Program-made: the position numbers and the translations under genes
Shown: piece after piece, positions 34,062 to 43,351 of the stretch
Layout of the letters: each line of letters begins with the position of its first letter
Numbering within the stretch: the first letter of the stretch is position 1
Notes under the pieces: generated by a model
Told to the model about the DNA's origin: nothing
The model's database searches: none
Seen by the model: the letters and a program-made list of their open reading frames with translations, nothing else
Source of the DNA: Escherichia coli
Lineage (GTDB): Bacteria; Pseudomonadota; Gammaproteobacteria; Enterobacterales; Enterobacteriaceae
Direction: 5' to 3' (one strand)
Assembly (NCBI RefSeq): GCF_003018255.1
Contig: NZ_CP027440.1
DNA length: 64,000 nt

Positions 34062-36764
34062 TTATTGCTTAGTAAACGGCGCGAAGATTTCGCTAAATGC
34101 GTACTTCGGTGCCTGTTCTTTAGTCAGGCCGTGGAATTCCGGAGACAGGTTAGTGCCGCCTGGCAGGTCGCGCGCGATTGACCAGATACCAACCATACCG
34201 AGATTACGCTTCTGCGCATCCTGCATGACCAGACGAGCATCAGAGAGATAGAACACCTCGCCCTGAACGTCGTTCACGCCAACCATCGGCGTGGTACCCA
34301 TCATAGCGTCAATTTCTGCATCGCTCTTATTGGGATGGAGGCCTTTCAATTGTGAATGCAGGTTGGCAATCGCAGACGTTGCACACTTACCGTGAATGTT
34401 CTGGCCTTCGGTATTTGCAGACTGACAAATCGCGTTACCGTAGTCCATTGTCATCACGTTCACACCCGCCAGCTCAACACCTTTCGCTTTGGCATCGCTC
34501 AGGACATTCATCCCTTCCGGCGTCAGGCCAGTCGGCAGAATTGGCAAGGTGTACCAGATAGCAATATCTTTGCCCTCTGACTTCCATTTATCCTGCACTT
34601 TCTTCACAGCAAGGTTACGACGTTCAATAGATGCCTGATCCGCAACCCAGGTGCCTTCGATATCGAAGTCCAGGACTCTGAGGTTCAGGTTATCAACGAT
34701 GTCATAATAATGCTGCATCAGATCGTCTACGTTCTTACAGGAAGCAGCCAGCGGAGCGTTGTTAGCACCACCGATAGACAGCATCACATCGCCGCCAGCT
34801 TCACGCAGAGCTTTGATTTTGCTGTACTGAGCGTAATTCTGCATACCGTAAGCGGTACCCCATGTCGGCAGACAGGTGTTCGCATCTTTACTCACCACAA
34901 ACGCCAGCGTGAAGTGGTTGACGTTATGATTCTTAGCCAGCGCAGCCAGATCCGGGATCGTATTCAGCGTAAAGTCAACATACGGTGCATAAACGTGTTT
35001 CGGCCACGCTTTCTTCGGCGTACCTACACGTTCTTTGGTTCCGGTCCAGTCAACAAAAACACGCCACGGGTTGCTGTCAGAAGGAGAAACTTTCTGCACT
35101 TTACTCTGAGAAATGTAGTTCGCACCGTTAAAGCGAATCAGCGTATCGCTGGCATAAAGCGTTTCTGGATTAAACTGCGGCGCATTATTCAGCTCTTCGT
35201 TGCTATAGCTCTGAGCCTTACCTAACGGCTTCCACGGGCGGCTATTGCTACCGGTGGCGTTTTGGTTCGCAACCAGAGCAGGGTTGTCGCTTTGCGTCCA
35301 GAACAGCGCTTCATAAGCCTGCCCATCAACAACAACGCGATCACCTTTCACGTACACGGTGGAAGCGGACCATGCTTTCGCCGGTTCGTATTTCTTCCAC
35401 GGGTTATCGCCGCCCGGGACAAAGCCCCATGCGTCTTGATCGACAGAGGTTTTATAATGTGCATCGTTATAATCTACGATGCTGTTCGCGCTGTACGCTT
35501 TGCTGGCCTGGAAACCATCCGCAACAATGACGCCGCCATTATCAATTTCACAGGTAGTTGGGTTACCGTACTGACTCATTTCCGCAGCGGTAGCTGTACG
35601 CACGAGACGCCATGGGTTATTGGAGTTTTCTGCACTAGTGCCACGTGGGCAATCTTCAGAACCAACCCACCAGGCATTCTGATAAACATTACCATTGAAG
35701 ATAACATGGTAAATTTCGCTACCTTCCTGGCCACTCCACGCCTGCAGTGAGTAATCGTTACTGCTATCCGCTGGTGTTGATGGCTCGTTATTATCCGGAG
35801 TAGGAGTAACTGGAGTTACCGGTGTTTCCGGAGTTGGATCAACCGGAGTCACAGCACCGCTATTATTATCCGGCTTAACGGAACAGGAACCCGGATTACC
35901 ATACTGGCTGATTTCTGTTGCCGTTGCCGCGCGAACATAACGCCATGGGTTGCTGGCATCGTTTTCTTTCGCATCGCCTGGGCAATTTGCCGCGCCTACC
36001 CACCAGGCGTTCTTATAAATGCCGCCGTTGTAGATAACGTACCATGTAGAAGAACCTTCCTGACCTTTCCAGGCTACGACAGCATAGTTGTCGTTTGACT
36101 TATCAGCTGGAGCTGGCTGAACATCAGGAGCCGGTTTAACGTCCGGTGCCGGTTTCACATCCGGCGCAGGCTGTGGTGCTGAAGTACAGGACTGTGGATT
36201 ACTGGTTTCTGAGATTTCCGTTGCCGTAGCGGCACGAACATAACGCCATGGGTTGCTGGCATCATTGCCTTTCGCATCACCCGGGCAGTTAGAAGAGGCT
36301 ACCCACCAGGCATTTTTATATACCGCACCATTAAAGACGACATACCAGGTCTGACCGCCCTGCTGTTTATTCCAGGCAACTACAGAAGAATTAGACGGAA
36401 CAGTGCCCTGTGCTGGTGTAGCCGAACCGCCATTAGCCGGCGTATTGGATGCAGGCGTATTTGAATTTGAAGAAGATGAGCTGCCGCTCTTTTCGCAGGA
36501 AAGTGTATTGCCAAACTGACTAATTTCAGCAGCTGTCGCGGTACGCTTTAAACGCCATGGGTTAGTTGCATCATTTGCTTTTGCTTTTCCCGGGCAATTT
36601 GTAGAAGAAACCCACCAGGCATTTTCATAAATTTTGCCATCGAAAATAACCTGATATTTATTACCACCTTGTTGGTTATTCCATACTTCCATTGCCAATG
36701 CTGGCAGAGCGGAACACACCAGCCCCATACCAATCATAGATTTAGTAAATATATTTAATTTCAT
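34062..36764 (-). CDS. chiA: Periplasmic/secreted endochitinase with four N-terminal chitin-binding-type modules
   Basis: ORF track 900 aa; signal peptide; four repeated ~65-aa W/C-rich modules (NAWWV...CPG...NPWR), Pro/Thr linkers, C-terminal catalytic domain. Confidence 0.92.
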   Translation of the reverse strand: MKLNIFTKSMIGMGLVCSALPALAMEVWNNQQGGNKYQVIFDGKIYENAWWVSSTNCPGKAKANDATNPWRLKRTATAAEISQFGNTLSCEKSGSSSSSNSNTPASNTPANGGSATPAQGTVPSNSSVVAWNKQQGGQTWYVVFNGAVYKNAWWVASSNCPGDAKGNDASNPWRYVRAATATEISETSNPQSCTSAPQPAPDVKPAPDVKPAPDVQPAPADKSNDNYAVVAWKGQEGSSTWYVIYNGGIYKNAWWVGAANCPGDAKENDASNPWRYVRAATATEISQYGNPGSCSVKPDNNSGAVTPVDPTPETPVTPVTPTPDNNEPSTPADSSNDYSLQAWSGQEGSEIYHVIFNGNVYQNAWWVGSEDCPRGTSAENSNNPWRLVRTATAAEMSQYGNPTTCEIDNGGVIVADGFQASKAYSANSIVDYNDAHYKTSVDQDAWGFVPGGDNPWKKYEPAKAWSASTVYVKGDRVVVDGQAYEALFWTQSDNPALVANQNATGSNSRPWKPLGKAQSYSNEELNNAPQFNPETLYASDTLIRFNGANYISQSKVQKVSPSDSNPWRVFVDWTGTKERVGTPKKAWPKHVYAPYVDFTLNTIPDLAALAKNHNVNHFTLAFVVSKDANTCLPTWGTAYGMQNYAQYSKIKALREAGGDVMLSIGGANNAPLAASCKNVDDLMQHYYDIVDNLNLRVLDFDIEGTWVADQASIERRNLAVKKVQDKWKSEGKDIAIWYTLPILPTGLTPEGMNVLSDAKAKGVELAGVNVMTMDYGNAICQSANTEGQNIHGKCATSAIANLHSQLKGLHPNKSDAEIDAMMGTTPMVGVNDVQGEVFYLSDARLVMQDAQKRNLGMVGIWSIARDLPGGTNLSPEFHGLTKEQAPKYAFSEIFAPFTKQ
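35549..36689 (-). repeat. Intragenic tandem module repeats in chiA (~310-bp period) plus PAPDVK x3 micro-repeat
   Basis: Near-identical DNA stretches, e.g. gcgaacataacgccatgggttgctggcatc at ~35925 and gcacgaacataacgccatgggttgctggcatc at ~36235; PAPDVKPAPDVKPAPDV encoded at ~36115-36170. Confidence 0.8.
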
Positions 36765-36995
36765 TATAATCCCTTGTGACGTAAAAACTGCAAAACAAAA
36801 GTCCTACGCAGGAATTATTTACGTTTTACGAGAACCCTTCAATATGAATTAAATTACGGCATTAAAAATAAGAAAAAAGCCTGACAAAAGAAGCATTTTA
36901 AAAACAGAAACATTCATATTTAAGATATTAAATTTAATTTATATTTTAAATATGAATAATTTATTCGTTCTGACAGTACGAATAAGATATGCAGT
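36765..36995 (-). promoter_or_regulatory. AT-rich chiA upstream/promoter region
   Basis: About 230 bp of very A+T-rich sequence with A/T tracts between tufA terminator and chiA start. Confidence 0.5.
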
Positions 36996-37005
36996 CAACA
37001 AATGC

Positions 37006-37031
37006 AAAAAGGGCGCCGAAGCGCCCTTTTT
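37006..37031 (-). terminator. Rho-independent terminator after tufA (str operon end)
   Basis: aaaaa-gggcgc-cgaa-gcgccc-ttttt, a perfect symmetric hairpin 25 nt after tufA stop. Confidence 0.85.
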
Positions 37032-37055
37032 AATTCGAAACTAATTAACGTGTAA

Positions 37056-38297
<1,242 letters not shown>

Positions 38298-38310
38298 TTA
38301 ACCCTTAGGC

Positions 38311-40437
<2,127 letters not shown>

Positions 40438-40521
40438 TTATCTTTTAGGCGTTCAATTTAAGTAGCCCAAAGCGGGCTGCTTACTGGAAGCGCCCGCCTG
40501 GTGACTAAAACTCCGAAGGGA

Positions 40522-41566
<1,045 letters not shown>

Positions 41567-41588
41567 GAAATATACAACGATCCCGCCA

Positions 41589-41876
41589 TCACCAGGCCAT
41601 CTGGCTGGAGTGCTTAACCGTAAGTCTGACGAAATCAGTATAGTCAATGAGAATGATATCGTTCGAAATTTGACCAGCCAAACCGCGGGCAATAAGGTCT
41701 TCGTTCAGGGCATAGACCTTAATGGGGGCATTACGCAGACTTTCAAGGTAGCGGTTACCGTCAACTGCGGCAGTTACACCATCTTGCAATAATAGCAGTT
41801 CGTCGCCCTCACTTAGCAGGCGCAGCAGCGCAGCAAAATCCGTCAGCCAGGGTGAACGATGTAATGTGTGCAGCAT
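41589..41876 (-). CDS. tusB: Sulfurtransferase complex subunit TusB
   Basis: ORF track 95 aa. Confidence 0.9.
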
Positions 41877-41883
41877 AAACGCC

Positions 41884-42242
41884 TCAAAACCTCAAAATAA
41901 CATCGTAGTTGGCGAGTTCGCGGCGTAAGGCATCTGCTTCGAGCGGCGTGGCTTCGACAACAAAGGGTGTCTGCGGATCTAACCCGCGTTCGCGCAGTGA
42001 AGCCGCACAAACCCAGCACTGTTCAATGTCGTACAGACCCAACAATTTAAAAGTGGCGATGTAATCACGCGCCAGCACTGCATCGGGCTTTTGTCCTGGC
42101 AGCAGCTGAAAAACGCCATCAGCAATAAAGAAGACGGCCAGATCGTCAGTTAATGCGGAAGTTGCCAGTAAAGCATCTAAACCTTCCCGACCAGCAGCTG
42201 TACCATGAGGCACAGTAGAAAAAACAAACGCAATTCGTTTCA

Positions 42243-42243
<1 letters not shown>
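41884..42243 (-). CDS. tusC: Sulfurtransferase complex subunit TusC
   Basis: ORF track 119 aa. Confidence 0.9.

Positions 42244-43351
<1,108 letters not shown>

Follow-up and report, generated by a model that had tools for sequence, protein, structure and literature searches.

In the window, by which we mean the whole 64,000-nt stretch of Escherichia coli DNA analyzed here, the gene for ribosomal protein S7 (rpsG) ends at a TAA codon, and the reading frame then stays open for a further 22 codons before it meets a TGA. The laboratory strain K-12 has a sense codon in place of this TAA. Two questions arise at the locus: which of the two alleles is the original one, and whether the open codons behind the stop are coding sequence or spacer. 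We consider it almost certain that the TAA is the ancestral, efficient stop of rpsG, that the 156-residue S7 is the normal protein, that the open codons are non-coding spacer, and that the TTA of K-12 is derived. The finding is correct and already known, and it holds nothing new on S7.

Two alleles at the end of rpsG

The following genes and signals of the str operon frame the stop codon.

38311 to 40425, minus strand: fusA, elongation factor G, 704 aa (open reading frame list; annotation at matches).
40426 to 40521, minus strand: rpsG-fusA intercistronic spacer, which is the fusA leader, 96 nt, in the str operon mRNA (sequence; alignment of 65 Enterobacterales spacers).
40431 to 40435, minus strand: Shine-Dalgarno sequence of fusA, GAGGA (sequence; invariant in the 65-sequence alignment).
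40453 to 40521, minus strand: in-frame stretch behind the rpsG stop, 22 sense codons and a TGA at 40455-40453 (translation).
40522 to 40524, minus strand: rpsG stop TAA, in a UAAU context; 40523 is the site of the K-12 T (TTA, Leu157) (pairwise alignment with K-12; allele-specific seeds).
40522 to 40992, minus strand: rpsG coding sequence, the 156-aa ribosomal protein uS7 plus TAA (open reading frame list and translation; rpsG annotation at the match in 5,425 E. coli genomes).
41089 to 41463, minus strand: rpsL (S12), the upstream str operon gene (sequence, open reading frame list, K-12 annotation).
41538 to 41566, minus strand: promoter-like TTGACA-17-TAAAAT upstream of rpsL (consensus scan, 11/12 matches).

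The sequence and its translation place the rpsG start codon, ATG, at 40992, followed by 156 sense codons that end in ...AFAHYRW. An earlier note on this DNA had described a 156-aa S7 with a TAA at 40522-40524 after HYRW, and all of these coordinates and residues are right. It had further counted a 23-codon extension up to the TGA at 40453-40455, which is accurate if the converted stop is added to the 22 sense codons, K-12 thereby gaining 23 residues, and it had equated the extension region with the fusA 5′ UTR, placing the fusA start at 40425; the stretch does belong to the rpsG-fusA intercistronic spacer. The fusA ATG (40425-40423) lies 27 nt past the in-frame TGA and 96 nt past the rpsG TAA. 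Farther upstream, the match to the promoter consensus at 41538-41566 probably marks the str promoter.

Aligned with K-12 MG1655 (NZ_CP010443, NC_000913.3), the window shows a single difference in the 146 nt around the stop, the K-12 allele having TTA for TAA at 40523. The MG1655 gene is 540 nt long and has 179 codons, the additional ones encoding Leu157 and 22 further residues, and the DNA for this tail and for its TGA is also present in the window. One base therefore separates the K-12 allele (b3341), in which the TTA leaves the tail translated, from the window allele, in which the TAA leaves it untranslated. The alignment and the translation of MG1655 bear out what the earlier note had given, namely, a TTA and a 179-aa S7 in K-12; the possibility that the K-12 reference also carries TAA was looked at, and MG1655 has TTA. 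Compared with the wild-type 156-residue E. coli uS7 in ribosome structures, which has the same ...AFAHYRW end and stop, no difference was detected.

The 251-nt region around the stop was found at ≥99% identity in 5,425 of 5,426 complete E. coli genomes and was 100% identical in 36 of 40 evenly sampled ones. One of these 5,425 genomes carries the rpsG-fusA locus on a plasmid-labelled record. Allele-specific queries assigned TAA to 5,076 of the 5,426 genomes and TTA, with a 55-mer, to 348, which together make 5,424 of the 5,425 genomes holding the locus. The TAA query was a 55-mer with a 1-nt insertion and is still allele specific, since any seed must be a 28-mer that ends in ...GGTA or ...GGTAA. 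The earlier statement that many other strains have the short form stands and can be made stronger: with 5,076 TAA genomes against 348 with TTA, the short form is that of essentially all non-K-12 E. coli.

All 60 of 60 evenly sampled TTA genomes measure 4.46 to 4.74 Mb and look, by name and source, like K-12 laboratory derivatives, transconjugant recipients, or O16:H48 strains; the assignment to the K-12 lineage was made by name, size, and source within this sample (n = 60) and not by phylogeny. Examples are MG1655, W3110-type strains, DH1, DH5alpha, DH10B-type strains, BW25113, MC4100, AB1157, HB101, J53, and TG1; the O16:H48 strains in the sample are mouse-passaged. A probe of the same kind detected the K-12 Thr246 allele of release factor 2 (prfB, ACG; MG1655 codon 246, L123:2045-2047) in 341 complete genomes, compared to 348 for the rpsG TTA, and the nearly equal counts fit both as markers of one lineage. 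The slight mismatch perhaps results from hybrids such as HB101 or from repaired strains.

The closest 25-kb matches of the window are natural isolates from pigs, poultry, and humans at 99.9% identity, and only 84 records reach 99%. Together with the TAA, these matches agree with the earlier description of the window as non-K-12-like at this locus. They also bear on whether the A at 40523 could be a sequencing or assembly error concealing a true TTA form. Such an error is a general possibility and has no other point in its favor, whereas TAA is the majority allele of the species (5,076/5,426 complete genomes) and the flanking 25 kb matches natural isolates, not K-12, at 99.9% identity. Because so many genomes share the A and 36/40 sampled genomes are identical to the window over 251 nt, we regard an error as very unlikely, with a probability close to nil.

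The polarity of the change was read from other species, using the last 18 nt of rpsG to scan one genome per species. In total, 120 loci were retrieved, two of which were chance matches outside rpsG; in every rpsG locus among them, the stop comes directly after HYRW and is almost always TAA. Since every other-species rpsG locus retrieved stops at this point, the sequence comparison indicates that TAA is ancestral and that the TTA of K-12 is derived. The window, then, carries the short ancestral rpsG allele, not the K-12 long allele.

The opposite polarity, in which the TAA of the window would be a derived nonsense truncation of an ancestral long S7 and K-12 would be the original, draws on the standing of K-12 as the reference strain, with its 179-codon gene in NC_000913 and in most structure entries: about 350 PDB entries have S7 chains of 179 or 178 aa, and at least 44 have chains of 156 aa. 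It is contradicted by the uniform stop after HYRW in other species, by the excess of TAA genomes in E. coli and the K-12 ancestry of the TTA genomes sampled, and by papers that call the K-12 allele the mutation (PMC9997739, PMC5691611), and it has practically no chance of being correct. With TAA as the ancestral state, a single A-to-T change in the K-12 laboratory lineage turned TAA into TTA, and as a result ribosomes in K-12 run 23 codons on, to the UGA 27 nt before the fusA start.

The open frame behind the stop

The 22 open codons make up the first two-thirds of a 96-nt non-coding spacer and happen to lack an in-frame stop. Chance suffices for a frame of this length. A run of 22 or more open codons arose in 31% of the shuffles of the 96-nt spacer (P of about 0.31), and among the 56 open reading frames of at least 150 aa in the window, 41% are likewise followed by 22 or more open codons past their own stop. 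The 22-codon open frame is therefore no more than expected by chance.

Nor is the frame kept in relatives, where it spans anything from 0 to over 130 codons. It closes after 0 codons in a Klebsiella sp., Cedecea, and a Citrobacter sp., after 5 in Pantoea, 9 in Morganella, and 12 in an Enterobacter metagenome-assembled genome; it stays open for 16 to 23 codons in Photorhabdus and Xenorhabdus, for 22 in Escherichia and some Citrobacter, for 27 in Kluyvera, Klebsiella oxytoca, and Leclercia, and for 67 to 68 in Lelliottia and Kosakonia. No excess of variation at third codon positions was found among 32 Enterobacteriaceae spacers, the values by position being 0.146, 0.129, and 0.109. With lengths from 0 to more than 130 codons and no codon-position pattern, conserved coding in the downstream frame was not found. 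In the window the segment at 40453-40521 does not code for protein; only in K-12 does translation run through it, giving the 23-residue tail of S7.

In one relative the frame never closes within the spacer. Salmonella enterica subsp. arizonae (L039:10893-11003) has no stop from the rpsG TAA to the fusA ATG, and the two genes, 99 nt apart, are in frame. Any read-through of the S7 stop in this subspecies would result in an S7-EF-G fusion.

Among the termination contexts of E. coli, UAAU is known as the strongest. The TAAT at the rpsG stop hardly varies, if at all, among 65 distinct Enterobacterales sequences, and a leaky stop context was accordingly not found. This conservation speaks against programmed read-through, by which wild-type strains would make a minor long S7 isoform across the TAA and the 22-codon frame would be kept for that purpose. 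The openness of the frame would fit such a scheme, as would a stable hairpin that begins 17 nt past the stop, and read-through peptides of rpsG have been published, although for the TGA of K-12 and not for the TAA codon (PMC11126739). The frame, however, is as open as chance predicts, is shut after 0 to 12 codons in the Klebsiella sp., Cedecea, Pantoea, Morganella, and the Enterobacter genome, differs greatly in length in other relatives, and varies without a codon-position pattern, while the changes in the stem of the hairpin are compensatory at the RNA level (see below) and a deleterious effect of the long S7 has been reported for K-12 (PMC5691611). Considering these points, programmed read-through has only a very slim chance of being correct, and normal termination at the TAA is retained here. 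The UAAU stop context and the non-conserved downstream frame give no motive at this locus for the search for S7 read-through peptides that had been proposed.

The long S7 of K-12

The sequence, the allele counts, the polarity, and the non-coding nature of the spacer were observed in this analysis; the phenotype of the K-12 allele is taken from published work. MG1655, W3110, and EMG2 carry the rpsG mutation with its C-terminal extension of S7, and the extension, together with the weak RF2 of K-12 (Thr246), has been tied to poor UGA termination and SsrA tagging of S7 (PMC9997739, citing Schaub & Hayes 2011 and others). The K-12 tail is described as deleterious, with SsrA (tmRNA) tagging and faster degradation of S7 (PMC9997739, PMC5691611). 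In laboratory evolution it is repeatedly lost by new stop or frameshift mutations, MG1655 lines having gained rpsG L157* (TTA to TGA) or a 1-bp deletion again and again (PMC5691611). At the TGA that ends the K-12 gene, read-through peptides have been recorded (PMC11126739).

The two annotations of MG1655 differ at this gene. In NC_000913, rpsG is annotated as the 179-codon b3341; in NZ_CP010443.1 (L001:1059-1526), the NCBI automatic annotation calls it a pseudogene that is "incomplete; missing C-terminus" and ends it at codon 156. The K-12 allele accounts for both quirks, a 179-codon S7 in the reference and an essential rpsG flagged as a truncated pseudogene elsewhere. As a marker, the single base at 40523 cleanly tells laboratory strains derived from K-12 (TTA) apart from every other E. 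coli (TAA), and the reference strain K-12 is the carrier of a defective ribosomal-protein allele.

A conserved hairpin in the rpsG-fusA spacer

A modest side lead, and the sole aspect of the locus that might be worth pursuing, is the spacer hairpin and how it relates to fusA expression. Four features are involved.

40463 to 40507, minus strand: GC-rich hairpin with a core stem of 40498-40489 / 40481-40471 (minimum free energy folds; covariation).
40466, minus strand: equivalent of the MG1655 Term-seq 3′ end 3473555(-), GCCCGCUUUGG^G, just 3′ of the core stem (PMC7815308).
40448 to 40455, minus strand: conserved box UGAACGCC, candidate 3′ arm of a long-range helix, overlapping the TGA that ends the K-12 long form (alignment).
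40539 to 40546, minus strand: GGCGUUCG in rpsG codons 149-152 (Lys-Ala-Phe-Ala), candidate 5′ arm of the helix (fold; complementarity).

Single-sequence folds place a GC-rich hairpin at the same position in 65/65 distinct Enterobacterales spacers, about 10 to 25 nt upstream of a GAACG(C/U)C box. The stems are clade specific: GCGGGC/GCCCGC in Enterobacteriaceae, CCAGCGGG/CCCGCUGG in Pantoea, CUGGGUGGC/GCCACCCAG in Photorhabdus, GGGUAGC/GCUACCC in Xenorhabdus, Morganella, Moellerella, and Providencia, and GGACAGC/GCUGUCC in Proteus. In an independent MAFFT alignment of 32 Enterobacteriaceae sequences, 98.4% of the cells of the core stem are paired, and 4 of the 10 pairs show compensatory changes. 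A covariance model was built from these 32 in-register sequences, and 47 sequences, including those of Pantoea and Photorhabdus, were aligned with it; 97.9% of the cells are then paired, with 8/10 pairs compensatory and slid-partner controls at 32 to 64%, in an alignment that was fitted to the model's structure and so leans towards that structure by construction. Xenorhabdus and the Morganellaceae did not reach an E value of 0.01 or lower with the model, and their hairpins are those of the single-sequence folds. RNAalifold returned no hairpin from a plain MAFFT alignment of all 65 spacers because the clades are not aligned in register. The spacer hairpin is an RNA structure kept by compensatory changes across Enterobacterales.

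The hairpin shares the GC-rich stem-loop of intrinsic terminators and lacks their U-tract. Directly after the stem, UUU is followed by GGGCUAC, and Morganella and Pantoea are without any U-run; given this lack, a terminator scan did not call the hairpin as a canonical terminator. There was no Rfam match in 36500-42500 at an E value of up to 1, and the known S7-binding rpsL-rpsG spacer likewise had none at that threshold. A published description of structure in the rpsG-fusA spacer was not found in a search that stopped short of the older str-operon papers and of Schaub & Hayes 2011.

Published Term-seq data nevertheless place an RNA end at the hairpin. In MG1655, a strong 3′ end at 3473555(-), within ...GCAGCCCGCUUUGG^G and 41 nt upstream of fusA, has a read count of 106444 and is scored as not Rho-dependent (PMC7815308; Adams et al. 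2021, supplementary files 1 and 3). Converted through the K-12 alignment, it corresponds to 40466, on the 3′ flank of the hairpin. The end was measured in K-12, where the region is translated, and the data do not separate termination from exonuclease trimming. The same set contains a second 3′ end, scored as Rho-dependent, at MG1655 3474080 (window 40991, minus strand), at the rpsG start codon (PMC7815308). This second end falls where the rpsL-rpsG spacer, the target of S7 autoregulation, finishes.

The GAACG.C box downstream of the hairpin is itself invariant or nearly so in the 65 Enterobacterales sequences. In the window the box UGAACGCC is the exact complement of GGCGUUCG within rpsG, and the helix formed by the two is present in the 171-nt minimum free energy fold (z = -2.8). 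In 61 of 64 sequences, GGCGUUCG and YGAACGYC form a helix of 8 bp, and pairing survives in every common variant of the box; only 41 of the 64 give the helix a mean pair probability of at least 0.5. Two-sided covariation is impossible for this helix because the 5′ arm is invariant coding sequence, and the predicted pairing of GGCGUUCG with UGAACGCC is suggestive only. The Lys codon in the 5′ arm is AAG in all Enterobacterales loci retrieved; in the loci of Vibrio and Alteromonadales, from which the box is missing, it is AAA.

Another pairing, in which the conserved UCCCUUCGG behind the stop would act as an anti-Shine-Dalgarno sequence on the fusA Shine-Dalgarno (CGAGG) and couple translation, is not supported. 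Its duplex energies are no better than those of composition-matched shuffles (mean z of -0.45), and the pairing is absent from Pantoea, Morganella, and the Klebsiella sp./Cedecea group.

Similar stem-loops are known between other cistrons. Like the REP-type stabilizer hairpins of malE-malF and weak internal attenuators, the element is a stable GC-rich intercistronic stem-loop, in this case a covarying one, and the RNA 3′ end reported for K-12 a few nucleotides past the stem, strong and scored as Rho-independent, recalls stem-loops that make or guard 3′ ends within operons. Unlike those stabilizers and attenuators, it has no U-tract, is not a REP element, and is without an Rfam match at an E value of up to 1. 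A regulatory site is also known in the same operon, the S7 autoregulatory site in the rpsL-rpsG spacer (Saito and Nomura; Fu et al. 2013, PMC3616713), and translation of the downstream cistron is reported to be coupled to that of the upstream cistron (PMC10931766). The rpsL-rpsG spacer (40993-41088) and the rpsG-fusA spacer (40426-40521), both on the minus strand, are each exactly 96 nt long. The S7 site nonetheless lies in the other spacer; by eye the two have no obvious sequence similarity, and S7 binding to the rpsG-fusA spacer is without a report in the literature searched.

The hairpin may generate or shield RNA 3′ ends at the boundary between the S12/S7 and EF-G portions of the operon, acting as a weak attenuator or, more likely in view of the missing U-tract, as a block to 3′-to-5′ exonucleases. 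A tentative and somewhat doubtful extension of this proposal is that the spacer as a whole is a conserved structured RNA, comprising the covarying hairpin, the GAACGYC box, and possibly the long-range helix, that sets the proportion between, or the stability of, the portions of the str mRNA that encode ribosomal proteins and EF-G. In wild-type strains, translation ends 17 nt before the hairpin, which would therefore be free to fold; in K-12, ribosomes translate straight through it. If the extended proposal is true, K-12, the basis of what is known about str-operon regulation, may not show the behavior of the element in wild-type E. coli.
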